DNA of 64,000 bases, taken from assembly GCF_045037415.1 (NCBI RefSeq), contig NZ_CP173438.1, one strand, 5' to 3'. This document shows, piece by piece, positions 6,104 through 48,208 of this stretch. Numbering within the stretch: the first letter of the stretch is position 1; each line of letters opens with the position of its first letter. The DNA is from Escherichia coli (lineage in GTDB: Bacteria > Pseudomonadota > Gammaproteobacteria > Enterobacterales > Enterobacteriaceae). A program made the translations under genes and the position numbers. A model generated the notes under the pieces. It saw only the letters and a list, made by a program, of their open reading frames with translations. It had not been told where the DNA came from and ran no database searches.

Positions 6104-7691
6104 ATGGCACATCCACCACGGCTGAATGACGACAAACCGGTTATCTGGACGGTATCTGTAACGCGCCTGTTCGAGCTGTTTCGCGATATCAGCCTCGAGT
6201 TTGATCACCTGGCGAATATCACCCCTATCCAGCTTGGCTTTGAAAAAGCGGTGACCTACATCCGCAAGAAACTGGCCAACGAACGGTGCGACGCCATCAT
6301 CGCTGCTGGCTCTAACGGCGCATATCTTAAAAGTCGCCTGTCAGTGCCAGTTATTTTGATTAAACCGAGCGGCTACGATGTGTTACAGGCACTGGCAAAA
6401 GCCGGAAAACTCACCTCTTCTATCGGTGTTGTCACCTATCAGGAAACCATTCCAGCGCTGGTGGCGTTTCAAAAGACCTTTAATTTGCGCCTCGACCAAC
6501 GTAGCTACATCACCGAAGAAGACGCCCGCGGGCAAATCAATGAGTTGAAAGCCAACGGCACCGAAGCGGTGGTCGGCGCAGGGCTGATTACCGATCTGGC
6601 AGAAGAAGCCGGAATGACCGGAATTTTTATCTATTCCGCCGCCACCGTGCGCCAGGCATTCAGCGATGCGCTGGATATGACGCGCATGTCGTTACGCCAT
6701 AACACTCACGATGCCACCCGCAACGCCCTGCGTACTCGTTACGTGCTGGGCGATATGCTCGGTCAATCACCACAGATGGAACAGGTGCGGCAGACTATTT
6801 TGCTGTATGCCCGCTCCAGTGCGGCGGTGTTGATTGAGGGGGAAACGGGGACGGGCAAAGAGCTGGCGGCCCAGGCGATTCATCGGGAATATTTTTCCCG
6901 CCACGATGCGCGACAGGGCAAAAAGTCACATCCGTTTGTTGCCGTTAACTGCGGGGCGATTGCCGAATCGCTGCTGGAAGCGGAGCTGTTTGGCTATGAG
7001 GAAGGGGCGTTTACCGGCTCGCGACGCGGAGGACGCGCCGGGCTGTTTGAAATCGCCCACGGTGGTACGCTGTTTCTTGACGAGATAGGCGAAATGCCGC
7101 TGCCGTTGCAGACTCGGCTGCTGCGGGTGCTGGAAGAAAAAGAGGTCACCCGCGTCGGCGGGCATCAGCCTGTTCCGGTGGATGTGCGGGTCATTAGCGC
7201 CACTCACTGCAATCTGGAAGAAGATATGCAGCAAGGGCAGTTTCGCCGTGACCTGTTTTATCGGCTGAGTATTTTGCGTCTACAACTGCCGCCGCTACGC
7301 GAGCGGGTGGCGGATATTCTGCCGCTGGCGGAAAGCTTTTTGAAAATGTCTCTGGCGGCACTCTCTGTCCCTTTTTCTGCCGCATTACGTCAGGGATTAG
7401 AGAACCTGTCAGATTCTATTATTGCACTACGACTGGCCGGGCAATATTCGTGAACTGCGCAATATGATGGAACGACTGGCGCTGTTTTTAAGTGTGGAAT
7501 CGACGCCGGATTTAACGCCGCAATTTTTGCAGCTGCTACTGCCGGAACTGGCGCGCGAGTCGGCGAAGACTCCCATTCCAGGCTTGCTGACAGCACAACA
7601 GGCACTGGAGAAATTTAATGGCGATAAAACAGCAGCGGCGAATTATTTAGGTATCAGCCGGACGACGTTCTGGCGGCGGCTGAAAAGCTGA
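6104..7691 (+). pseudogene. prpR: Sigma-54-dependent propionate regulator PrpR, reading frame interrupted by a +1 frameshift near 7405-7422 (pseudogene or sequencing indel)
   Basis: Frame 1 ORF (to 7453) has Walker A GETGTGKE and GAFTGS; the C-terminal [17 protein letters not shown] and Fis-type HTH (AAANYLGISRTTFWRRL) continue in the +1 frame (7422-7691); intact PrpR is ~528 aa. Confidence 0.8.
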
Positions 7692-8885: not shown

Positions 8886-9692
8886 GCAGATAATTTACTC
8901 TCTACGTAATCAACCTGATTTGCCGAATCCCAACCATCGGCGATGATAGCCCCCGTAATGCGTGGTCCTTATTTCCGATAAGTTTACTTGAGTCTTTAGC
9001 TTCCCATTTCAGCCTACTCTCCCCTGTGTGGGCTTTTTCATTGGTCTGACCCGTCCTGAATAGCCAAACAATGGCAATGTTCCACTTTGCAGGGATGATA
9101 ATAAGGGGATCTGATTCAGAAGAGTTTTGAAAAGTTGGACCGCCATCGAGGCCTCGAACCCCGTACCATACAACAATCCTGGTTGTCGTCTGCTCTTCCT
9201 GATGAGCTAATGGCGGTTTTTGATATGAGCCTTACAGCATATTTTCTGTCAGGCTTGAGTGCGATGCGTAAGATACAGAAAAGCCCCCACACAAACATGA
9301 TGGAATTATGATTTTTTTCATATGAATGTCAACCCACACATTCACAAAACATCTGTATGAGAACATTTTTTATACACCATATAGCTGCGAAACCACTGCT
9401 GGTGCTTTTTTAAGCGAAACTTCGTCGATCACAACAAAATATCGGCGAAAAAGGAGGGGGAATGCCATTTGGCATACAGATATACAGATGAAATGATGAC
9501 CTGCTTTGCGATTCACTCTCTGGTGGAATAACAACTTGCAGGTGGCTCTCTTAAATAAAAATAAACGTCGCAGATAATAAAGCTCTGATTAAACCAGACA
9601 CTATCAGAAATCGCTCATAACTAACGTGTAAAGTAGTAGAGTTAATTTAACAATCTGAATTTACGCTATAGGTTTACCACTACTTTGATATT

Positions 9693-15108: not shown

Positions 15109-16655
15109 CAGGCTTCCTCCCCTTTGCAGATAAATTCACGCGCCAGCAATCCGGTATTGGTGCTGCTGCTCGCCAGAATCACTCCGGCATCAAGCAGCAT
15201 CTGGCTTTGTTGTTCTAATGATGGCGTATCGAGATCGGTGCCCAGCACATAGGCGAGAATGATCAACTCGCGTCCTTCGGCAGCGGCGATCGCTTTCGCT
15301 TCTTTGATCGCCTCGATGGTGGAACCGACCGGATCTTCATGCGATCCAAATCCGAGCACAAAATCCATCACGATCACCGCCACTTCTGGATCGCGCGCTT
15401 CTTCGATCAAGCGGCTGATACGGTTGGTCGGGTCAATCATTGGATGCGGCTTGCCGTTGGTGAAGTCATCATCGCCAAAGTCGAGGAAGGTGTGTTTGAT
15501 GCTGCGGTTGATATCTTGCAGGCGGAATTCAGGATCGGGCTGGATATTGCTGTAGACATCGCCATGTTTTTCCATCACCGCGAACAGGGTTTCGTCACAC
15601 AGCGTACCGCCGCAGAACAGACCACGAATGTATTTCTGCTGCGGTTGCAGACGCGCGCGCACATCCGCAATCAACGGCTGGTCAAGCGTATGCAGATCGA
15701 GATGTTCTTGTTTCACGCCGGAGAGCATCACCGCTTTCAATGCCGCCTCTTTGCTGCCGCGAGCAAACTGTAGCCCCTGCTCATCCACTGGCGTTTCGCC
15801 ACGACCGAGGAAGCAGGCCACCACTGGCTTGCGGCAGGCGCGTGCGCGTTCCAGCACTTTGCGGGCCACCGCAGGCGCAGGCGGTTTGGAGATAAGCACA
15901 ATGATTTCAGTTTGCGGATCGTTTTCCAGCATGCTGATGGCATCGAGCATCATCAGTCCGCCGATTTTCTCGCTCAGGTCGCGCCCGCCGGTGCCGATCA
16001 GTTGTGAAACGCCGCCACCAAATTCATGGATACGGACGCTCAATTCCTGGCTGCCGGTGCCAGATGCGCCAACAATACCGATGTTGCCGCGACGCACGGC
16101 GTTACCAAAGCAGAGCGCCGCGCCGTTGATAATCGCCGTGCCGCAGTCTGGCCCCATCATCAGCAGCCCTTTTTCATGGGCCAACTGTTTGAGCGCCAGT
16201 TCATCTTCAACTGAGACATTATCGGAAAACAGCATCACGTTGAGGTCATTTTGCAGCGCCTGACGCGCTTCGCGAGCGGCAAACAGACCGTTGACCGAAA
16301 TCACTGCCAGGTTACTTTCCGGGATATGCTTTTTGGCGCTGGCAATAGTGCCGTAACGCGCCTCGTGCGAGCCGCTTTGCGCTTTGGTGTTGAACAGTTC
16401 TTCAATCTCCGCCAGCAACTGCTCGTTGTCCACACCCGATTTACCATTGATGACAATCATCAGGTCGCCGTTTTTCGCCTGCTCCAGCTCCGGCGTCAGC
16501 AGTCCTAAATTCTTCAACACGCCTTTGTTCATTTCGGTCGCCATCGCCACAAATGCCTGCTCGACGCCGTCGAGTTTATTTGCACGCGTGGAGATAGACA
16601 TCAGCGAGACAGAATCAAAATAGGTATTCGGTTTAATGACTATTTTAACTGACAT
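15108..16655 (-). CDS. yahF: FdrA-like CoA-binding protein (succinyl-CoA synthetase alpha-like fold; paralog of FdrA/AllF)
   Basis: 515 aa ORF; glycine-rich CoA-binding regions; synteny. Confidence 0.8.
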   Translation of the reverse strand: MSVKIVIKPNTYFDSVSLMSISTRANKLDGVEQAFVAMATEMNKGVLKNLGLLTPELEQAKNGDLMIVINGKSGVDNEQLLAEIEELFNTKAQSGSHEARYGTIASAKKHIPESNLAVISVNGLFAAREARQALQNDLNVMLFSDNVSVEDELALKQLAHEKGLLMMGPDCGTAIINGAALCFGNAVRRGNIGIVGASGTGSQELSVRIHEFGGGVSQLIGTGGRDLSEKIGGLMMLDAISMLENDPQTEIIVLISKPPAPAVARKVLERARACRKPVVACFLGRGETPVDEQGLQFARGSKEAALKAVMLSGVKQEHLDLHTLDQPLIADVRARLQPQQKYIRGLFCGGTLCDETLFAVMEKHGDVYSNIQPDPEFRLQDINRSIKHTFLDFGDDDFTNGKPHPMIDPTNRISRLIEEARDPEVAVIVMDFVLGFGSHEDPVGSTIEAIKEAKAIAAAEGRELIILAYVLGTDLDTPSLEQQSQMLLDAGVILASSSTNTGLLAREFICKGEEA

Positions 16656-21939: not shown

Positions 21940-23973
21940 TCACGCGTCCGGGAACATCACGCTATGGCCCGGCGCTTCACGATGGAGATGGATAAAGTTA
22001 AGGTGCCGCTCGTACTGGTCGAGAATATCGGTGATCACCTGCTCTTTGCTGTAGTCCATCAGGTCGTTGCCCTGGCTGCCTTCTAACAGGAAGGTTTCCA
22101 GCCGGTAGTAGGTCGATTTCCCGCTACGTGCGCGGTAGGTAAAGCCCGGCACCGAATATTGCTGTGGCCAAATCTGATAGACAAAGTTTTGCTCTTCGCC
22201 CATATGCACCAACAAATCCAGATGCCCCAACTGTTGTCCCTCTTCCGGCGGCAGGTTTTTTAGCTCCACGTACGCGCCGCGCAACCGCAGTTCCTGCGCC
22301 ACTTCTTCCATTGCCGGATAACAGACCGTCTCCATCATCTGTTTAGTGTAACGCGTGCCCGGATAATTCATCAGGCGCGAGAGACGTTTTTTCCAGCTCA
22401 GGCGATCCTGAAGCCCCAGCGGTCGCGGTGCGGTATCGCGGTTGGCACTTTCACGGCGGTAATCTTCTACCTTCAGAGATTTATACAACCCCGCCATCAC
22501 GAAGAAGATCACAAAGCTGAACGGCAGGCCCATAATCACCGTGGTGTTTTGCAGCGCGGATATCCCGTTGGTCATCAGCATGCCTAGCGTCAGCAGGCCA
22601 ATCGCCACCGACCAGAAGACGCGCAGCCAGCCGGGTGCGTCGCTGTTGATATCTTTAAGCTGCGAGGTGAAATTCCCCAGCACCAGCGCACCGGAGTCCG
22701 CCGAGGTCACATAAAATAGCAGGCCAGTAATGGTGGCGACGGAGGCGCTAAAGGTAAACGCCGGATACTGCGCCAGCAGGCTGTAGAAGCCGCGCTCCGG
22801 ATGGACCATCGCTTCCTCGGCAAATGCCGCGCCGCCGTGGATGATTTCATACAGCGCGCTATTGCCGAATACCGAGAGCCATAACAGCGTGAAGGTAAAC
22901 GGAATAATCAACGTGCCCAGCACGAACTGGCGAATGGTACGCCCACGCGAGATACGCGCCAGGAACAAGCCGACAAACGGCGACCATGCCACCCACCATG
23001 CCCAGAAGAAGAGCGTCCAGTTATTCATCCACTCAACCGGACGGTCGAAGGCAAAACTATTGAGCGTCATGCCCATAAAGCGATTCACATAGTCGCCAAC
23101 GTTCAGCACCAGTGCATTAAGCAGGAACGAGGTGTCGCCCATAAACAACACGAACAGAATCAATCCCAGCGCCAGCGCAACGTTGAGTTCCGATAACACG
23201 CGAATGCCCTTATCGACACCGGATGTCACCGAGATAGTGGCGATGATCACCGACAAGGCGATCAGTGCCGCTTTCGCCGCCATCGAATCGGGAATATCAA
23301 ACAGCACGCTCAAGCCATAGTTAAGCTGCACCACACCGATACCGAGCGTAGTGGCAATACCGAAGATGGTGCCGATCACCGCAGCAATATCCACTGAGTG
23401 ACCTATCGGCCCGTTAATCCGTTTACCGAAGATCGGGTACAGCGCCGAGCGGATGGTGAGCGGCAAATTATAACGATAGCTAAAGTATCCGAGCGCCATG
23501 CCCATCAGCGCATACATCGACCAGCCGGTTAAGCCGTAGTGAAACAGCGTCCAGACCATCGCCTGACGCGCGGCCTCAATCGTCTGTCCCGCGCCTTCCG
23601 GCGGCTGCATATACTGCGTTACCGGTTCGGCTACGGAGAAGAACATCAGGTCGATACCGATCCCGGCAGCAAACAGCATCGCCGCCCAACTCAGCAAACT
23701 GAATTCCGGTTTTGATTGTTCTGGCCCGAGCTTCACCGAACCAAAACGCGAACAAGCGATACAGACCACAAAGACAATATAGAGCGTTGCCGCCAGCAGA
23801 TAGTACCAACCGAAGGTTTTAGAAACCCAGTCCAGCGTGCGGCCAATCCACAGGGCCGAGAAGTCGCGAAACAGGATCGTTGTCAGGGAAAACAACAAAA
23901 TCAGTCCGGCGGAAGTGTAAAACACCACCGGATTGATTTTGTCCTTTTCCCTGCTGTGTGAAAGGTCTGTCAT
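21940..23973 (-). CDS. betT: High-affinity choline transporter (BCCT family)
   Basis: 677 aa polytopic membrane ORF; divergent from betIBA. Confidence 0.95.
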   Translation of the reverse strand: MTDLSHSREKDKINPVVFYTSAGLILLFSLTTILFRDFSALWIGRTLDWVSKTFGWYYLLAATLYIVFVVCIACSRFGSVKLGPEQSKPEFSLLSWAAMLFAAGIGIDLMFFSVAEPVTQYMQPPEGAGQTIEAARQAMVWTLFHYGLTGWSMYALMGMALGYFSYRYNLPLTIRSALYPIFGKRINGPIGHSVDIAAVIGTIFGIATTLGIGVVQLNYGLSVLFDIPDSMAAKAALIALSVIIATISVTSGVDKGIRVLSELNVALALGLILFVLFMGDTSFLLNALVLNVGDYVNRFMGMTLNSFAFDRPVEWMNNWTLFFWAWWVAWSPFVGLFLARISRGRTIRQFVLGTLIIPFTFTLLWLSVFGNSALYEIIHGGAAFAEEAMVHPERGFYSLLAQYPAFTFSASVATITGLLFYVTSADSGALVLGNFTSQLKDINSDAPGWLRVFWSVAIGLLTLGMLMTNGISALQNTTVIMGLPFSFVIFFVMAGLYKSLKVEDYRRESANRDTAPRPLGLQDRLSWKKRLSRLMNYPGTRYTKQMMETVCYPAMEEVAQELRLRGAYVELKNLPPEEGQQLGHLDLLVHMGEEQNFVYQIWPQQYSVPGFTYRARSGKSTYYRLETFLLEGSQGNDLMDYSKEQVITDILDQYERHLNFIHLHREAPGHSVMFPDA

Positions 23974-24101: not shown

Positions 24102-24689
24102 ATGCCCAAATTGGGAATGCAGTCGATCCGGCGCAGACAACTGATCGACGCCACGCTGGAAGCAATAAATGAAGTGGGCATGCACGATGCAACGATCGCG
24201 CAGATCGCCCGCCGTGCAGGCGTTTCTACGGGGATCATCAGCCACTATTTCAGGGACAAAAATGGTCTGCTGGAAGCAACCATGCGCGATATCACCAGTC
24301 AGCTGCGTGACGCGGTTTTGAATCGATTACATGCACTTCCGCAGGGCAGTGCAGAGCTGCGATTACAGGCGATTGTTGGCGGAAACTTCGATGAAACCCA
24401 GGTGAGCAGTGCGGCGATGAAAGCCTGGCTGGCCTTCTGGGCCAGCAGTATGCATCAGCCGATGCTTTACCGTTTGCAGCAGGTCAGTAGCCGCCGCTTA
24501 TTGTCGAATCTGGTGAGCGAATTTCGCCGCGAGTTACCGCGCCAACAGGCACAGGAAGCGGGCTACGGCCTTGCCGCGCTAATTGACGGATTATGGCTGC
24601 GCGCGGCACTGAGCGGCAAACCGCTGGATAAACCTCTCGCACACTCGCTGACCCGTCACTTTATTACTCAGCATTTACCCACCGATTAA
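24102..24689 (+). CDS. betI: TetR-family repressor of the bet regulon
   Basis: ORF 24084-24689; probable start MPKLG; TetR HTH ([21 protein letters not shown]). Confidence 0.9.
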
Positions 24690-24699
24690 CCGAGGAGAC

Positions 24700-26176
24700 G
24701 TGATGTCCCGAATGGCAGAACAGCAGCTTTATATACATGGTGGTTATACCTCCGCCACCAGCGGTCGCACCTTCGAGACCATTAACCCGGCCAACGGTAA
24801 CGTGCTGGCGACCGTGCAGGCCGCCGGGCGTGAGGATGTCGATCGCGCCGTGAAGAGTGCCCAACAAGGGCAAAAAATCTGGGCGGCGATGACCGCTATG
24901 GAGCGCTCGCGTATTCTGCGTCGGGCCGTTGATATTCTGCGTGAACGCAATGACGAACTCGCAAAACTGGAAACCCTTGACACCGGAAAAGCATATTCGG
25001 AAACCTCAACCGTCGATATCGTTACCGGTGCGGACGTGCTGGAGTACTATGCCGGGCTGATCCCGGCGCTGGAAGGCAGCCAGATCCCGTTGCGTGAGAC
25101 GTCATTTGTTTATACCCGCCGCGAACCGCTGGGTGTGGTGGCGGGGATTGGCGCATGGAACTACCCGATCCAGATTGCTTTGTGGAAATCCGCCCCAGCG
25201 CTGGCGGCAGGCAATGCAATGATTTTCAAACCGAGCGAAGTCACCCCGCTTACCGCGTTAAAGCTGGCCGAAATTTACAGCGAAGCGGGCCTGCCGGACG
25301 GCGTATTTAACGTGTTGCCGGGCGTGGGCGCGGAGAACCGGACAATATCTGACCGATCATCCGGGCATTGCCAAAGTGTCATTTACCGGCGGTGTCGCCA
25401 GCGGCAAAAAAGTGATGGCTAACTCGGCAGCTTCCTCCCTGAAAGAAGTGACCATGGAGCTGGGCGGTAAATCACCGCTGATCGTTTTCGACGATGCGGA
25501 TCTCGATCTCGCCGCCGATATCGCCATGATGGCGAATTTCTTCAGCTCCGGTCAGGTGTGTACCAACGGCACTCGCGTCTTCGTTCCGACGAAATGCAAA
25601 GCCGCATTTGAACAAAAGGTTCTGGCGCGCGTTGAGCGCATTCGCGCGGGCGACGTTTTCGATCCGCAAACTAACTTCGGCCCGCTGGTCAGCTTCCCGC
25701 ATCGCGATAACGTGCTGCGCTATATCGCCAAAGGCAAAGAGGAAGGCGCGCGCGTACTGTGCGGCGGCAATGTACTGAAGGGGGATAGCTTCGATAACGG
25801 CGCATGGGTTGCACCGACCGTGTTCACCGATTGCAGCGACGATATGACCATTGTGCGAGAAGAGATTTTCGGGCCAGTGATGTCCATTCTGATCTACGAG
25901 TCGGAAGACGAAGTCATTCGCCGCGCTAACGATACCGACTACGGTCTGGCGGCGGGTATCGTGACGGCGGACCTGAACCTCGCGCATCGCGTCATTCATC
26001 AGCTGGAAGCGGGTATTTGCTGGATCAACACCTGGGGCGAATCCCCGGCAGAGATGCCCGTTGGCGGCTACAAACACTCCGGCATTGGTCGCGAGAACGG
26101 CGTGATGACGCTCCAGAGTTACACCCAGGTGAAGTCCATCCAGGTTGAGATGGCTAAATTCCAGTCCATATTCTAA
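24700..26176 (+). pseudogene. betB: Betaine aldehyde dehydrogenase, reading frame broken by a single-base insertion (extra A at ~25336-25337); pseudogene or sequencing indel
   Basis: Frame 1 reads ...LPGVGAEN then garbage to a stop at 25422; deleting one A from gagAAcc restores ...[28 protein letters not shown]... continuous with ORF 25376-26176; intact BetB is ~490 aa. Confidence 0.8.
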
Positions 26177-26189
26177 CCAGGAGGTTTAT

Positions 26190-27860
26190 TTGCAATTTGA
26201 CTACATCATTATTGGTGCCGGCTCAGCCGGCAACGTTCTCGCTACCCGTCTGACTGAAGATCCGAACACAACCGTGCTGCTGCTTGAAGCAGGCGGCCCG
26301 GACTATCGCTTTGACTTCCGCACCCAGATGCCCGCCGCGCTGGCGTTCCCGCTACAGGGCAAACGCTACAACTGGGCCTATGAGACGGAACCCGAACCGT
26401 TTATGAACAACCGCCGCATGGAGTGCGGACGCGGCAAAGGTCTGGGCGGTTCATCGCTGATCAACGGTATGTGCTACATCCGTGGCAATGCGCTGGATCT
26501 CGATAACTGGGCACAAGAACCTGGTCTGGAGAACTGGAGTTATCTCGACTGCCTGCCCTACTACCGCAAGGCCGAGACTCGCGATGTGGGCGAGAACGAT
26601 TACCACGGTGGCGATGGCCCGGTGAGCGTCATCACCTCCAAACCCGGCGTCAATCCGCTGTTTGAAGCGATGATTGAAGCGGGCATGCAGGCAGGCTACC
26701 CACGCACGGACGATCTCAACGGCTATCAGCAAGAAGGTTTTGGCCCGATGGATCGCACCGTCACGCCGCATGGCCGTCGCGCCAGCACCGCGCGTGGCTA
26801 TCTCGATCAGGCCAAATCGCGCCCTAACCTGACCATTCGTACTCACGCCATGACCGATCACATCATTTTTGACGGCAAACGCGCGGTGGGCGTCGAGTGG
26901 CTGGAAGGCGACAGCACTATTCCGACCCGCGCGGCGGCGAATAAAGAAGTGCTGTTATGTGCAGGCGCGATTGCTTCACCGCAGATCCTGCAACGCTCCG
27001 GCGTCGGCAACGCTGAACTGCTGGCGGAGTTTAATATTCCGCTGGTGCATGAATTACCCGGCGTCGGCGAAAATCTTCAGGATCACCTGGAGATGTATCT
27101 GCAATACGAGTGCAAAGAACCGGTTTCCCTCTACCCTGCCCTGCAGTGGTGGAATCAGCCGAGAATCGGTGCGGAGTGGCTGTTTGGCGGCACCGGCGTT
27201 GGTGCCAGCAACCACTTTGAAGCAGGCGGATTTATTCGCAGCCGTGAGGAATTTGCGTGGCCGAATATTCAGTACCATTTCCTGCCAGTGGCGATTAACT
27301 ATAACGGCTCGAACGCAGTGAAAGAGCACGGCTTCCAATGCCATGTCGGATCGATGCGCTCGCCAAGCCGTGGGCATGTGCGGATTAAATCCCGCGACCC
27401 GCACCAGCATCCGGGAATTCTGTTTAACTACATGTCGCACGAGCAGGACTGGCAGGAGTTCCGCGACGCAATTCGCATCACACGCGAGATCATGCATCAA
27501 CCCGCGCTGGATCAATACCGTGGCCGCGAAATCAGCCCTGGTGTCGAATGCCAGACGGATGAGCAGCTCGATGAGTTCGTGCGTAACCACGCCGAAACCG
27601 CGTTTCATCCGTGCGGTACCTGCAAAATGGGTTATGACGAGATGGCTGTGGTTGACGGCGAAGGCCGCGTACACGGGCTGGAAGGCCTGCGCGTGGTGGA
27701 TGCGTCAATTATGCCGCAAATTATCACCGGCAATTTGAACGCCACGACGATTATGATTGGCGAGAAAATAGCGGATATGATTCGTGGGAAGGAAGCGTTG
27801 CCGAGGAGCACGGCGGGATATTTTGTGGCAAATGGGATGCCGGTGAGAGCGAAAAAATGA
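26190..27860 (+). CDS. betA: Choline dehydrogenase (GMC oxidoreductase, FAD-dependent)
   Basis: Probable TTG start 6 nt after AGGAGG RBS giving [15 protein letters not shown] (FAD Rossmann motif); 556 aa; the ORF-track extension to 26145 overlaps betB and is not used. Confidence 0.9.
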
Positions 27861-28944: not shown

Positions 28945-29508
28945 ATGACGAGAAAATATCTCACACAGGATGAAGTCTACAGGCTGATGGATGCAGCCCA
29001 GAGCATGTCCTTTCCTGAAAGAAATCGCTGTCTAATTATGATGGCTTTCATTCACGGTTTTAGGGCCAGTGAACTTCTTGATTTACGTTTATCCGATATT
29101 GATGCATCTGGAAAACAACTTAATATTCGGCGTATTAAAAATGGTTTCTCGACAACACATCCTCTTCTTCCTGATGAATATAATTTGATCAAGTTGTGGC
29201 TTAAGCAGAGGAAGTTAATTGAAAACGGAGTTGAAGGAGACTGGCTTTTTCTCTCCCGGAAACGCCGCCCTATCAGCAGACAACATTTTTTTTCTATCAT
29301 TCGTGAGGCTGGAAAACGTGCAGGATTAGCTGTAAAAGCACATCCTCATATGTTACGTCATGCCTGTGGTTTTGCTCTGGCTGACAATGGTGTCGATACC
29401 CGACTACTTCAGGATTATCTGGGTCATCGAAATATTCAGCATACTGTCAGATACACAGCCAGTAATGCTGCTCGTTTTAAAGGGGTGTGGAAAAAAAAGC
29501 CTCGTTAA
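28945..29508 (+). CDS. FimB/FimE-type site-specific tyrosine recombinase (phase-variation recombinase, IpuA-like)
   Basis: ORF 28906-29508, probable start MTRKYLTQDEV; strong similarity by eye to FimE (LLDLRLSDID, INIRRIKNGFSTTHPL, HPHMLRHACGFALA, LGHRNIQHTVRYTASNAARF) including catalytic R-H-R-Y residues. Confidence 0.85.
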   Translation: MTRKYLTQDEVYRLMDAAQSMSFPERNRCLIMMAFIHGFRASELLDLRLSDIDASGKQLNIRRIKNGFSTTHPLLPDEYNLIKLWLKQRKLIENGVEGDWLFLSRKRRPISRQHFFSIIREAGKRAGLAVKAHPHMLRHACGFALADNGVDTRLLQDYLGHRNIQHTVRYTASNAARFKGVWKKKPR

Positions 29509-41861: not shown

Positions 41862-42746
41862 TCAATCATGTATTTTTACAGCAAGACAACCACGAACAAA
41901 CTCAGGATTAAAATGTTTTACCGATTCCCCAACATAACCCAAATCTAGCGAACTAATTTGCGCCATTTCTTTCTCTGTCAGTGAGAAATCCCAGATAGCA
42001 AAATTTTCTTCGATACGCTGTTGATGTGTCGATTTCGGAATAACGACCACTCCCCGTTGAATATTCCAACGCAGAATGACCTGAGAAATCGATTTTTGAT
42101 GGGCATCTGCAATACTCTGAAGCAGATTATTTTCAAAGGGTTTATGTCGTCCACCACCTAACGGAGCCCATGCTTCAGGCTGCACGTTATAATACTTCAT
42201 GGTTGCCAGCGCCTCTGGTTGGGCAAAATAGGGATGCAACTCGACCTGGTTGACCATCGGTTTAACTCTTACCGTTTCACAAAAGTTCGCCAGAACATGA
42301 GGGTAGAAATTGGAAACCCCAATCGCTTTTAATTTGCCCTCTTCATAGGCATCTTCGAGTGCACGCCACGCACTAAAATAATCGCGCATGGCCTGGTGCA
42401 ATAAATAGAGATCGAAGTATTCTAGCCCCGATTTTTTTAATGATGCTTCAATACCTGCTGCTGCAATATCCTGATTCAACATATCCTGCACCCACAATTT
42501 AGACGTTATAAATAACTCTTCTCGGGTACATAAACCTTCAGATATGGCTTCACGAACGGCTTCACCGACGGCATCTTCATTACCGTATACCGCTGCAGTG
42601 TCGATGAGTCGATAACCCGTGCGGATAGCATTCAACACTGACTGTTTGCACACGTCTTTATCGGTAACCTGAAAAACACCAAATCCCATCATCGGCATTT
42701 TCAGATTGTTACTTAATACGGAAAATTCCACTGTCAGTCCCTCCAT
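41862..42746 (-). CDS. Aldo-keto reductase (DkgA-like NADPH-dependent reductase)
   Basis: 294 aa ORF; AKR motifs ([27 protein letters not shown]); N-terminus parallels DkgA. Confidence 0.85.
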   Translation of the reverse strand: MEGLTVEFSVLSNNLKMPMMGFGVFQVTDKDVCKQSVLNAIRTGYRLIDTAAVYGNEDAVGEAVREAISEGLCTREELFITSKLWVQDMLNQDIAAAGIEASLKKSGLEYFDLYLLHQAMRDYFSAWRALEDAYEEGKLKAIGVSNFYPHVLANFCETVRVKPMVNQVELHPYFAQPEALATMKYYNVQPEAWAPLGGGRHKPFENNLLQSIADAHQKSISQVILRWNIQRGVVVIPKSTHQQRIEENFAIWDFSLTEKEMAQISSLDLGYVGESVKHFNPEFVRGCLAVKIHD

Positions 42747-42945
42747 TAGGTATGAACAATGAGTCTACGTTAAAACGTAACCTCAAATTAGTATGTGGAT
42801 TTTGATATCACTTATGCAAAAAATTCATTAATAATGTAGGACTGAAACCTCTCTATTTTTGGGGCAATGAAGCAGACGCTATCAGTGCTTTTGCCTTGGG
42901 ACTTGCTGTTTTTGATACACTTAGGGCCCAGGACATAACGAAAAT

Positions 42946-43836
42946 GTGCGATATGACAAAGAATTAACGGAGTATGTGATGATCAGGCAGAAGATTCTAC
43001 AGCAGCTCCTGGAGTGGATTGAGTGCAATCTTGAGCACCCTATTTCAATCGAAGATATCGCACAGAAATCTGGCTACAGCAGACGCAACATCCAGCTTCT
43101 GTTCCGAAATTTCATGCATGTGCCTTTGGGAGAATACATTCGCAAACGAAGGCTTTGTCGTGCCGCCATTCTTGTCCGGCTCTCCGCGAAATCTATGCTT
43201 GATATTGCACTCTCTTTGCATTTTGATTCACAGCAGTCATTCAGCCGCGAATTTAAAAAGTTATTCGGCTGCTCTCCCCGTGAATACCGCCACCGTGATT
43301 ATTGGGATCTCGCAAATATCTTCCCTTCTTTTTTAATACGTCAACAGCAAAAGACGGAGTGTAGATTAGTCAACTTTCCTGAGACACCTATTTTTGGCAA
43401 TTCATTTAAATATGATATTGAAGTGTCGAATAAATTACCGGATGAAGAAGTCAAACTGCGACGTCATCATTTAGTCAGATGTATGAAGAATTTTAAGACG
43501 GATATCTATTTCGTCTCCACGTTCGAACCATCAACAAAATCGGTCGATTTGCTCACAGTTGAAACTTTTGCCGGTACGGTATGCAAACAAACCGATTCAG
43601 AGATGCCGAAAGAGTGGACAATTAACCGAGGACTGTATGCCTCTTTCCGCTATGAAGGTGAGTGGGAGCACTACCCTGAATGGGCGCGAAACCTCTATCT
43701 GATGGAATTACCTGCCAGGGGGTTAGCCAGAGTGAACGGCAGTGATATTGAGCGATTTTATTACAATGAAAACTTCGTCGAAATTGATAGCAATAACATT
43801 GTTTGCGAAATTTTTATCCCCGTTCGCCCGGTTTAG
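42946..43836 (+). CDS. ykgA: AraC-family regulator with C-terminal GyrI-like effector domain
   Basis: 296 aa ORF (start could be 42979 MIRQK); AraC HTH (ISIEDIAQKSGYSRRNIQLLFRN... SFSREFKKLFGCSPREYR). Confidence 0.75.
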   Translation: MRYDKELTEYVMIRQKILQQLLEWIECNLEHPISIEDIAQKSGYSRRNIQLLFRNFMHVPLGEYIRKRRLCRAAILVRLSAKSMLDIALSLHFDSQQSFSREFKKLFGCSPREYRHRDYWDLANIFPSFLIRQQQKTECRLVNFPETPIFGNSFKYDIEVSNKLPDEEVKLRRHHLVRCMKNFKTDIYFVSTFEPSTKSVDLLTVETFAGTVCKQTDSEMPKEWTINRGLYASFRYEGEWEHYPEWARNLYLMELPARGLARVNGSDIERFYYNENFVEIDSNNIVCEIFIPVRPV

Positions 43837-43960
43837 CCTGTAACTCCATCACATAAGATTTACCCTACCCTGCCACCGTCTAATCGGTGCCAGGGTAGGT
43901 ATTCAGTAAATAATGGCGCTGCGCATGTCAACGCCATTATTATTTATTACATCGTCGTTT

Positions 43961-46900
43961 TTATTTCTCCTCAGCACCTTCAGTATCTGCAGGAACGGCG
44001 TTAATTGTCACAGTCACGGGTTTCATTTCATACCCTCCATATGTCAAAGAGTTGAATGTGAATGTGTATGTACCTGGCTTGTTGGTACTAAATGTACGCG
44101 TGATTTTCCCGCTCGCGAAATGGTCATTTTTCGACGGCAGGAACTGATAATCCGCCTCTGTCACCCCTTCCGGAGCCTCAATGTCGACCCACATGGTTCC
44201 TCCTACCGGGTTGTTTGCCGAGAACAGGGTTACCGTCAGTGTTGCTGTCGTTACCCCATCCGCCACCAGAGAATGCACATCAGATGTTGCGGCGAGCTCC
44301 GCGTTTTTATCATCCGCGACGAATTTAGATTCGGCAGTTTTCGTCGATTCCTGACCGTCGGCCTGTTCCACTTTCGCCGTGAGTGTATATGTCGCTGCGA
44401 CAGTGGTCGTGGCGGTGAAAATAGCCTGCCCTTGCTCATTCGTTGTCGCCGTCCCATTGGGAGTCAGAACTAAATTTTCCGGGCTGGCAGTCAGCGTCAC
44501 TTCGCTATCTTTCAGCAGGTTGTTATTGGCATCAGTCACCGTAACTTTATACGTCTGTTTGGTTTTGCCGTCCGCCACTGCACGGTTGCCAATCACCTCA
44601 ATACTGGAGATGGTCGCCGTAGTCTTATCGGCCACAAACGTTACAGACTGCGCATTCGAAGGCTGGTCATTTCCTGCTGACGCCGTGATCTCATAGGTTC
44701 CGGCAGTCACGGAAACCACCTGCAACTCCGCTTTCCCCTCATCGTTGGCTTTCACCCACACATTATCGCCTGTAAGCGGCTTGACACCCCGGGGCAGATT
44801 AAAGGTCACCAGGCTCCCTGGAACAGGGTTACCATTTTTATCCTCAACGTTCGCCGTCAGCGTAAAGGCATCTTTGCCGTTTGCCACTTTTTGAACGGCG
44901 GTGTCTACCTGCAGGTTTGCCTGACCGGTGCTGGCATCCGCGTTGAATTTCACCGTGACCGTCTTCTGAGCACCATTCACCGAAGCGGAAATATTGTGTT
45001 CTCCCGCAACCGTTGACATAAGCTCAATGTCCACTTTCCCTGCCGCATTGGTTGTTACTGTATTCCCCGTCTTGCTGGTCACACCCTGCGGTAAAGTCAG
45101 CGTAACTTCTTGCCCCTGCAACGGGTTACCATAGCTGTCCACGACGGTCAGGGTTATCTGGTTAGCAGACTGTCCATTAGCCAGTTGGTTATTAACCTTC
45201 ACTGTCATATCACGAATCTCAGCCTTAGATGCGTCACCTGCAACATTCAGCACCAGTGGCTGAGCAACGGCATTTTGGCCGTTCACTCGCGGCATCACAG
45301 ACAACTGACCCGCGGCAGATCCCAGCGTTAAGGTCGACACGTAGACCCCATTACCTTTCTCTGTCCAGTTTCCTGCTGAAGGACGCTCACTCCCCGTGCT
45401 GGCGGCACCACTAAACACTGGTGCATCTGGCTTCAGCCCGGTGACCGGATTCCCGTACGCATCCTTCACGGTGAAGGTGAGTTCCGTCGTCGTTTTAACC
45501 GTTGGAGTTTTATTGTCCGCAACAAGCGTAGAGTTCGCTGATGACATCTCTCCGGCAATAACAGTCAGCTGCGCGGCTTCGGTGGCTGCAGGCTGGCCGT
45601 TGAAGAGCGGCATGACACGAAGCTCGCCCGTCTTTCCGCCTGTAGTTAACGTAGCAACATAGGAACCGTCACCTTTTTCGGTCCAACTGGAAACGGTCGC
45701 CCCTTCAGAGGCGGTCCCCGTCAAACTTGCCGACAACGAAAGACCACTGATAGCGTTGCCATGCGCATCTTTCGCCACCAGCGTTACGGTTGTGCTTTCA
45801 CCGGCTTTTACGTGATCTTCTGCGACAGAGACTTTCGACTGGTTTGAAGATAATGCATCAGCCACCACGGTTACTTTTGCCGCATTCGCTGCCGCGTCCT
45901 GCCCATTGAGCTTCGGCATAACGTCTAATTCACCCGCCGTAGTGCCGAGAGAAATCTGCGCAATCCAGGTCCCGTCGCCATTATCCGTCCAGCCTGATGC
46001 CGTAGAACCAGCAGCAGCTGCGCCCGATAATGACGGTGCATCCGGATTGAGGCCAGTTACAGGGTTGTCATTAGCATCTTTTGCCGTCCAGATTGCCGTA
46101 ACTGTACCGCCAACCACCGGTTTATCAGGATTCAGGGTGATGGACGAATGTGCTGCATCAAGCGGCCCGGCAACAAACTTCAGCGTTTGTTGTAACGTGC
46201 CCAGCTGATACTGCTCGCTGAAGGCACGCACAACAACGTTCCCGGCACGGGTCGAAGAAACCGTGGCGCTGTAAACCCCTGGTTTTATTTCCGAAATGGC
46301 ACCAACGGTTACACCATTAGTGTCTTGCGGAACAAGTCGCAGGCGGCTGGCTTCTCCCGTCACCGGATTACCCTCGGAGTCCACCGCTGTCAGTGTCAGC
46401 GTGTAGGCTTGCTGACCATCAGCAACCACATCACCTGACGGCTCGTTAGCGCTCAGGGTGGAGTTTGCCACATCCATCATCGTGGCCCGCAGTTCTGCAG
46501 TGACAGTTTTGCTCATGTCATCAACGCTAACAGTAATCGTTGCCTCACCTGACTGCGTTCCGGTAGTAAAGACAGACTGATACACCCCTGATTCAGTTTC
46601 GGTGAACTCACCCAGTGTTGGCTTTGCCTGTGATTTAGTGGCCTTCAGGGTACGAGTCACAATATTTCCAGCCGGTTTGAAGGTTAGTTCAGTCTTGATC
46701 TGATCTTTCATGCCCGTGACTGGCTGACCCTCGGCGTCGCGCAGAGACAGCACCAGCGGCTTTTGCTCATTACCGTTAGCAAGCATTTGAATACGGCTCT
46801 GACCGTCAAGCGTTAACGCCGTACGATCGGCGCTCATACCAGCTCCGCTAATAACCACTTCTGTCTGCACACGTTTCGAGGCATTGCCTTTGTTATCGTA

Positions 46901-48208
46901 GGCAATCGCTGAAATCGCATAATAATTGTCTTTGCCTGCCTGATAAGCCGGGAGCGTCACTTGCCACTGATTGCCCTGCCCCGTAATTTTTCCGCCTGCG
47001 GCCAGCAAAGACGGCGCTTCCCATTGCACATTTTTCAGACCGTGAGTTGCTTTGCTGACCACAAGCCCCAGGGAAACCGTCTGGCCGCCCTTGCCTTCAA
47101 TACGCTCAGGCAGAGCAATACGGATCACTTCAGATTTGCGATACTCAAGAACGATATTGTTATTACGCTCAACCAGGTCATAGCGGCTGCCTGCCAGCAT
47201 TCGACGCTCGCGAATGCTGTCTGTATCGAGTTGTTTTTCCAGAGGTTCGCCAATCCGATAATTAACTTCCAGGCCAAAGCGAGTGTCATTCTCACCACTC
47301 TTGCCCTGCTTATGCCCGGCACTCAGGGTCAGAAGAGGCACTGGCGTGTAATTCACTTCAGCGGTAATCGCATGTGGATCTTTCTGGCGTTTATCTTTAC
47401 CAAACAGCCCGACTTCATCGCCATAATACTGTTCATACATGAGGCTTGCGCCAAGCTGCGGCCAGGCAGGTAAATAGCCCTCAGCACGAATATCCCAGCC
47501 ATTCGCCGGGCGTTCCTGATAATCCTCAACATCCGGCGATTTTTTCCAGCCAGAAGCCCGGATATAACCATTGGCGCTCAGTTTCAAATAATCACGCCAG
47601 TATTCCGCACCAACACCAATGCGGGTATGACTACGGGATAAATCATGATCGATAAAAGTATTCACCCCCGCCATCCAGTCATTTTCTGAAAAATGACGCC
47701 AGCCAAAACCAATATTTGACTGAGTACGATCGTCGGTACGATGTATTGCCCCCTGAGTGAACAACATATTTGTCGGTGTATCATAAATCGGATAAAGCAT
47801 TTCCAGCGAAGAGTCCTTCAGCGAGAAATTTTTATCGACATTCAGTTTGACGCGCGCAGTACCGTATTTCCCGAGCCACTCCTGAATTTCCTGGTTAGCT
47901 TTAGCGGTGGCCATTCCGGTAATAAAGTTACGTGTCGCATCGCTATCTGGCTGACTGCTTAAAAATGTCCCGGCATTAGCGGCAAGCGACGCGACATTTT
48001 TCTCCACGTTATTATTAGCAGTTACCGTAGTATTTTCCATGCTCAACCGTGGCTGAACCGCATGCTGCGCACGTGCTGCCATTACTGGCGTAAAGGTGAC
48101 TGCGAGTGGAAAAAGAACCTGAACAGAGATATTTGCCCACGCCACGCAGCGGGCCAGAACTGAATAACGAAATCGTGGCTGTTTATTGTCTGTTTTATAA
48201 CGTGACAT
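43961..48208 (-). CDS. fdeC: Intimin/invasin-family outer-membrane adhesin (FdeC/EaeH), intact
   Basis: 1415 aa uninterrupted ORF; N-terminal beta-barrel region and repeated Ig-like units (e.g. recurring VMPxxNGQxAxAxxAxxTV). Confidence 0.9.
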   Translation of the reverse strand: MSRYKTDNKQPRFRYSVLARCVAWANISVQVLFPLAVTFTPVMAARAQHAVQPRLSMENTTVTANNNVEKNVASLAANAGTFLSSQPDSDATRNFITGMATAKANQEIQEWLGKYGTARVKLNVDKNFSLKDSSLEMLYPIYDTPTNMLFTQGAIHRTDDRTQSNIGFGWRHFSENDWMAGVNTFIDHDLSRSHTRIGVGAEYWRDYLKLSANGYIRASGWKKSPDVEDYQERPANGWDIRAEGYLPAWPQLGASLMYEQYYGDEVGLFGKDKRQKDPHAITAEVNYTPVPLLTLSAGHKQGKSGENDTRFGLEVNYRIGEPLEKQLDTDSIRERRMLAGSRYDLVERNNNIVLEYRKSEVIRIALPERIEGKGGQTVSLGLVVSKATHGLKNVQWEAPSLLAAGGKITGQGNQWQVTLPAYQAGKDNYYAISAIAYDNKGNASKRVQTEVVISGAGMSADRTALTLDGQSRIQMLANGNEQKPLVLSLRDAEGQPVTGMKDQIKTELTFKPAGNIVTRTLKATKSQAKPTLGEFTETESGVYQSVFTTGTQSGEATITVSVDDMSKTVTAELRATMMDVANSTLSANEPSGDVVADGQQAYTLTLTAVDSEGNPVTGEASRLRLVPQDTNGVTVGAISEIKPGVYSATVSSTRAGNVVVRAFSEQYQLGTLQQTLKFVAGPLDAAHSSITLNPDKPVVGGTVTAIWTAKDANDNPVTGLNPDAPSLSGAAAAGSTASGWTDNGDGTWIAQISLGTTAGELDVMPKLNGQDAAANAAKVTVVADALSSNQSKVSVAEDHVKAGESTTVTLVAKDAHGNAISGLSLSASLTGTASEGATVSSWTEKGDGSYVATLTTGGKTGELRVMPLFNGQPAATEAAQLTVIAGEMSSANSTLVADNKTPTVKTTTELTFTVKDAYGNPVTGLKPDAPVFSGAASTGSERPSAGNWTEKGNGVYVSTLTLGSAAGQLSVMPRVNGQNAVAQPLVLNVAGDASKAEIRDMTVKVNNQLANGQSANQITLTVVDSYGNPLQGQEVTLTLPQGVTSKTGNTVTTNAAGKVDIELMSTVAGEHNISASVNGAQKTVTVKFNADASTGQANLQVDTAVQKVANGKDAFTLTANVEDKNGNPVPGSLVTFNLPRGVKPLTGDNVWVKANDEGKAELQVVSVTAGTYEITASAGNDQPSNAQSVTFVADKTTATISSIEVIGNRAVADGKTKQTYKVTVTDANNNLLKDSEVTLTASPENLVLTPNGTATTNEQGQAIFTATTTVAATYTLTAKVEQADGQESTKTAESKFVADDKNAELAATSDVHSLVADGVTTATLTVTLFSANNPVGGTMWVDIEAPEGVTEADYQFLPSKNDHFASGKITRTFSTNKPGTYTFTFNSLTYGGYEMKPVTVTINAVPADTEGAEEK

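Follow-up and report, generated by a model that had tools for sequence, protein, structure and literature searches.

Does the Escherichia coli strain represented by the 64-kb stretch of DNA analyzed here (hereafter, the window) carry a broken betB gene, or was the gene broken only in the assembled sequence? The betaine-aldehyde dehydrogenase gene betB (window positions 24703..26176, plus strand) is 1474 nt long as assembled and consists of two reading frames, encoding 239 and 266 amino acids, rather than a single uninterrupted one. The 5' truncated frame (24703..25422, plus strand), read from the ATG at 24703, encodes 211 native residues, up to ...PGVGAE, followed by 28 out-of-frame residues and a stop codon at 25420-25422. 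The native sequence resumes at 25337 in the +1 frame and runs to the stop at 26176; within this stretch, an open reading frame with an internal GTG start (25376..26176, plus strand, 266 aa) covers the C-terminal half of BetB. The genes surrounding betB are those of the choline pathway, and each is intact: the choline transporter gene betT (21940..23973, minus strand), the repressor gene betI (24102..24689, plus strand) and the choline dehydrogenase gene betA (26190..27860, plus strand).

Alignment with strain JJ1887, an ST131 reference genome (NZ_CP014316.1), placed a single surplus A in betB at 25336/25337, within the sequence gcggagaaccgg (25328-25339), with the edit running from GCGGAGACCGG to GCGGAGAACCGG. 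The affected heptamer, GAGAACC (25333..25339, plus strand; aligned with JJ1887, Esc14 and UID2309220015), is the Eco31I/EcoMI recognition site GAGACC with one added A. Deletion of one A yields a 1473-nt open reading frame, the 490-aa product of which is identical to WP_001295806.1, the intact BetB of the ST131 strain SK1144. The corrected protein matches both NCBIfam equivalog models of betaine-aldehyde dehydrogenase above their curated cut-offs, scoring 913.7 bits over residues 1-490 against NF009725 (cut-off 593) and 814.5 bits against TIGR01804 (cut-off 668.6), and is thus a full-length member of the BetB family. The initial annotation, which held that one extra A breaks betB and that its removal restores a conserved sequence of about 490 aa, is borne out on both counts.

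In a megablast search of 5,426 complete E. coli genomes, the window fell within the ST131 lineage. Base-by-base comparison with JJ1887 over the entire 64 kb identified no substitutions and, at three places, a length difference of one base. Two of these are specific to the window, namely, the additional A in betB and an additional A in prpR. The third is located in ecpC at position 60748, where the window contains a run of seven G and JJ1887 contains six. The ecpC gene is labelled frameshifted in JJ1887, and the window and the other assemblies have an intact copy, so this defect belongs to JJ1887 and not to the window. Two further genes, yahM (window ~9.0-9.3 kb) and ykgL (56.4-56.7 kb), are labelled 'frameshifted' in all ST131 genomes examined, JJ1887 included; these labels appear to reflect lineage-wide states or effects of the annotation models rather than assembly errors.

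The second window-specific insertion affects prpR (6104..7691, plus strand), which is 1588 nt long as assembled and 1587 nt when corrected. Here, too, GAGACC became GAGAACC (7400..7406, plus strand), with the surplus A at 7403/7404 and the edit running from TTAGAGACCTG to TTAGAGAACCTG. The prpR frameshift that had been noticed alongside that in betB is therefore real in the sequence as given, and without the surplus A the encoded PrpR is identical to that of strain 439. The prpR frameshift is almost certainly an artefact of the same kind as that in betB.

The motif shared by the two insertions is a known methylation target in ST131. The methylome of the ST131 strain EC958 comprises five methylated motifs, among them GAG-m6A-CC; 100% of the GAGACC adenines in the chromosome are modified, and the opposite strand is predicted to carry GGT-m5C-TC (Forde 2015, PMC4659465). 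The responsible enzymes, M1.EcoMI (m6A) and M2.EcoMI (m5C), are 100% identical to M1.Eco31I and M2.Eco31I, the methyltransferases of the type IIS Eco31I system (Bitinaite et al. 1992, cited in Forde 2015), and are encoded on the genomic island GI-leuX in EC958 (Forde 2015, PMC4659465). In both betB and prpR, the surplus A occupies the position of the adenine that is N6-methylated in ST131, and the adjoining base pair carries m5C on the other strand; both window insertions thus lie at a modified base within the motif of a methyltransferase active in this lineage.

After correction, the window contains six GAGACC/GGTCTC sites in 64 kb, of which two, those in prpR and betB, are hit and four are intact. 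The intact sites comprise a second GAGACC inside betB (24775..24780, plus strand) and three GGTCTC sites on the minus strand, at 36452..36457, at 57543..57548 (in ecpR) and at 63935..63940. Among the assemblies compared below, the sites at 24775, 36452 and 63935 were never miscalled. The probability that two random indels would both fall within motif zones was computed to be ~3e-7, and the coincidence of two insertions with the same edit on GAGACC is beyond chance. The shorter EcoP1I site AGACC was considered as an alternative motif and rejected: the window contains 33 AGACC and 30 GGTCT sequences, yet only the GAGACC sites are affected, and the 6-mer Eco31I motif fits better. When the flanking bases of affected and unaffected sites were compared, sites preceded by A looked less often hit, with numbers too small to support a claim.

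These counts bear on the possibility that the betB insertion is a random, non-systematic assembly error, caused by low coverage or general indel noise and unrelated to methylation. In its favor, some indels in the comparison assemblies lie off GAGACC, including the A9 that strain 447 has in place of A8 (window position 29490) and a C5 to C6 difference in the GI-leuX region. However, both window insertions represent one and the same edit in one rare 6-mer, independent assemblies share the affected positions, and the remainder of the window is free of errors relative to JJ1887. An origin of the betB frameshift in random error is therefore extremely improbable.

To place the insertions among other genomes, 61-nt queries centered on each of them were compared with complete E. 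coli genomes. The betB insertion was found in 3 of the 4,074 matching complete genomes, those of strains 447, 439 and Esc20, and the prpR insertion in 2 of 643, those of Esc14 and UID2309220015; in this 61-nt census, no complete E. coli genome carried both insertions. These five assemblies were then compared with the window base by base over the 64-kb region. Strains 447 and 439 come from Taiwan, and UID2309220015 comes from Thailand; a literature search by accession and strain name found no papers describing the five assemblies. No substitutions were detected among the window and the five assemblies across the 64-kb region.

The states of the two sites are distributed among these genomes in a mutually inconsistent manner. 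The window has the additional A in both prpR and betB; Esc14 and UID2309220015 share the prpR insertion and have wild-type betB; 439 and 447 have wild-type prpR and the betB insertion; Esc20 combines the betB insertion with the loss of a G at the prpR site (AGAGACC to AGAACC); and JJ1887 is wild type at both sites. All four combinations of the prpR and betB insertions are therefore seen among substitution-free genomes, so that no tree without recurrence explains the pattern.

This pattern weighs against the reading most favorable to a true pseudogene, namely, that a genuine +1 frameshift was inherited within an ST131 sublineage, so that betaine aldehyde is not oxidized to glycine betaine. Several observations agree with inheritance. 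At least two projects contributed the three complete genomes with the identical insertion (those of the Taiwanese strains 447 and 439, and of Esc20), in all of which RefSeq labels the identical 1474-nt sequence 'betB, frameshifted', and the site is not a long homopolymer and hence not a place for a classic homopolymer error. Against this stand the four combinations of the two insertions among genomes without a single substitution in 64 kb, the sharing of both the 6-mer and the edit by prpR and betB, and the mutually incompatible changes that other motif sites carry in the same assemblies, with three alleles at one site. Furthermore, 4,071 of the 4,074 matched complete genomes, many of them from ST131, lack the insertion. 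We consider an inherited frameshift highly unlikely. The initial annotation had reasoned that, if the frameshift is genuine, the strain cannot make glycine betaine from choline; the biochemistry of that statement is sound, but the frameshift is very unlikely to be genuine.

The alternative that we regard as very likely is that the betB frameshift is not a mutation but a consensus error of the assembly at a methylated GAGACC site. Another site of the same motif is affected in the same region of other assemblies. In ecpR, the C of GGTCTC at 57546 is lost in Esc20 and in Esc14, and the gene carries the RefSeq label 'ecpR frameshifted'. Altogether, the six assemblies contain 13 indels in the 64-kb region, and 10 of these are located on just three of the six motif sites. 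The remaining three are off-motif: TTT to TT in 439, A8 to A9 in 447, and GAA to GAAA in UID2309220015, the last of these near a Dcm site.

Two of the off-motif indels have features of their own. In the fdrA gene of strain 439 (window position 15633), a TTT run is shortened by one T; the run is part of the minus-strand sequence ATACATTCGTG, which is an RTACN4GTG site, the EcoMIII methylation motif of ST131. Further methylation motifs may be a source of consensus indels. At position 29490, at the 3' end of ipbA, the window has A8 and strain 447 has A9, which in the latter results in a longer 'tyrosine-type DNA invertase' (WP_249534036.1); the A9 is probably a homopolymer error. The Esc14 assembly also lacks the segment corresponding to window positions 33983-48044, from ykgH to fdeC, and an IS1 occupies the junction, in keeping with a deletion mediated by IS1.

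The analysis was extended to a second region, ~45 kb around GI-leuX, taken from JJ1887, Esc20, 439, Esc14 and UID2309220015. In JJ1887, the restriction-modification genes occupy positions 4,948,993-4,953,550. Intact genes for both methyltransferases, m6A (WP_001295726.1) and m5C (WP_001295727.1), are present in Esc20, 439, Esc14 and UID2309220015, that is, in all four affected assemblies that were checked. The motif sites in this region show the same kind of scatter as those in the window. At the site in a GTPase gene (position 9559 of the JJ1887 region, L018), Esc20 is wild type, 439 has an additional T, Esc14 has lost a C, and in UID2309220015 CT is changed to TC. At the site in a GRP transporter gene (position 32845), Esc20 has C to T, both 439 and UID2309220015 have an additional T, and Esc14 is wild type. 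At the yjhG site (position 37968), 439 and Esc14 have an additional A, whereas Esc20 and UID2309220015 are wild type. All three substitutions that distinguish Esc20 from JJ1887 over the ~45 kb are GGTCTC to GGTTTC or its complement. When the two regions were pooled, 21 of the 68 motif-site observations differed from JJ1887, compared with a handful of non-motif differences across several hundred kilobases. The changes at the motif thus recur across assemblies and conflict with a common phylogeny, and three or four different miscalls can be seen at a single site.

Several features of the GI-leuX region lie outside this motif. One is the C5 to C6 indel, which is located outside GAGACC: JJ1887 has C5 at 4,935,601-4,935,606 (L018 5601-5606), in a gene labelled as a frameshifted hypothetical, and Esc20, 439, Esc14 and UID2309220015 have C6, so the C5 is probably a homopolymer error in JJ1887. 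In Esc14 (NZ_OZ369269.1, 1,396,600-1,404,500), a chromosomal resistance module consisting of ISEcp1-blaCTX-M-15, a Tn3 remnant, IS26, aac(6')-Ib-cr, blaOXA-1 and a catB remnant is located within the Eco31I-family restriction endonuclease gene; both methyltransferase genes are intact. In UID2309220015 (NZ_CM142692.1, 1,255,700-1,278,300), the segment from mtnK to topAI is inverted relative to JJ1887, with two copies of ISEc52 at its borders; in addition, hsdR of this assembly lacks one C within a CCAGG Dcm site, and a GA repeat in its yjiR is 2 bp shorter.

The recurrence of changes at one motif could, in principle, be biological. If Eco31I/EcoMI sites were real mutational hotspots, site-destroying indels and C-to-T changes would arise recurrently in vivo in ST131 strains with the Eco31I-type system, and betB, prpR and ecpR, among other genes, would be switched off repeatedly; the causes that could be proposed are m5C deamination (for C to T), error-prone repair after self-restriction (for the indels) and selection for site loss. 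Deamination of 5-methylcytosine is established chemistry and would yield the C to T seen at the m5C position; moreover, every observed change destroys the recognition site. However, about 30% of the motif sites would have to mutate independently in each strain, among strains otherwise free of substitutions over 64 kb, and many of the changes disrupt the reading frames of conserved genes (prpR, betB, ecpR and yjhG). In addition, the older ST131 genome JJ1887, with the same restriction-modification system, has no changes at the sites examined, and the m6A methyltransferase (M1) gene is present in 633 of the 5,426 complete E. coli genomes, yet the two insertions are seen in 3 and 2 genomes only. 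Mutational hotspots are, accordingly, an exceedingly unlikely explanation.

A consensus error at methylated GAGACC, by contrast, would account for these observations through the following route. The source strain belongs to ST131, a lineage with the Eco31I-type type IIS restriction-modification system EcoMI, and its own genome would be expected to encode EcoMI, judging from the window's identity to genomes of ST131 clade C. EcoMI would place its two modifications, GGT-m5C-TC and GAG-m6A-CC, on opposite strands of adjoining base pairs, so that reads of either orientation would encounter a modified base at one and the same spot, where the basecaller or polisher could produce a miscall; the lack of a clean signal from either strand may be what makes this motif especially prone to error. 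The miscall would take the form of an extra A or T, a lost C or G, a C to T change or a CT/TC swap. Because such an error is systematic, read depth would not outvote it. The data were probably signal-based long reads, most likely from Oxford Nanopore, assembled from nanopore reads only. The correct calls at four of the six window sites suggest that the error is stochastic or context-dependent.

Strand orientation in the deposited record was also considered as the factor that decides whether an error occurs, and was rejected: in UID2309220015, which has the prpR insertion, the locus runs the other way in the record, and Esc14 and Esc20 have miscalls at minus-strand sites.

The initial annotation had suspected systematic indel errors from the occurrence of two frameshifts in conserved genes within 20 kb. 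This suspicion holds up: both are GAGACC to GAGAACC at an ST131 methylation motif, and in five other, nearly identical assemblies miscalls at this motif recur in an inconsistent fashion. Nanopore errors that are recurrent, motif-centered, associated with lineage-specific methylation and capable of surviving consensus polishing have been described (Chiou 2023, PMC10687267; Lohde 2024, PMC11610573). Our literature search found no paper on GGTCTC/GAGACC as a nanopore error motif or an indel-prone motif; for this sequence, it returned methylome papers only (Forde 2015; Snappy 2025), none of which reports errors there.

Judging by sequence comparison, the betB and prpR genes of the strain are almost certainly functional. 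Biologically, the case is ordinary; its practical value is that of a quality-control warning for ST131 and for other E. coli with an Eco31I-type system. The Eco31I-type motif appears to give rise to recurrent false frameshifts and SNPs in ST131 genomes that were deposited as "complete", and RefSeq annotation turns such miscalls into pseudogenes, as with betB, prpR, ecpR, yjhG, the GRP transporter gene and the GTPase gene. Given the number of complete genomes that carry the m6A methyltransferase gene, pseudogene counts, cgMLST distances and inferences of gene loss can be distorted. Motif-aware correction or masking of GGTCTC/GAGACC would clear most of the errors found here.

Compared with known systems, the locus itself conforms to the E. 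coli betIBA-betT locus for choline-to-glycine-betaine osmoprotection, with the same order of betT (minus strand), betI, betB and betA, and differs from it in that betB is split between two frames as assembled. In relation to the Eco31I/EcoMI system of ST131, the window holds target sites only, and the restriction-modification genes lie beyond it, in GI-leuX; the insertions in the window are located at the m6A position, whereas the deletions and C-to-T changes in the other assemblies are located at the m5C position. The closest parallel is with methylation-induced Nanopore errors (PMC10687267, PMC11610573), which, like the errors described here, are recurrent and motif-centered and create false differences between near-identical strains. 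The published errors, however, are mainly substitutions of purine for purine or pyrimidine for pyrimidine at GCAGC, GCTGG and RACG, whereas those analyzed here, on what we infer to be the same platform, occur at GGTCTC/GAGACC, where both strands are modified, and include 1-nt indels that give rise to false pseudogenes.
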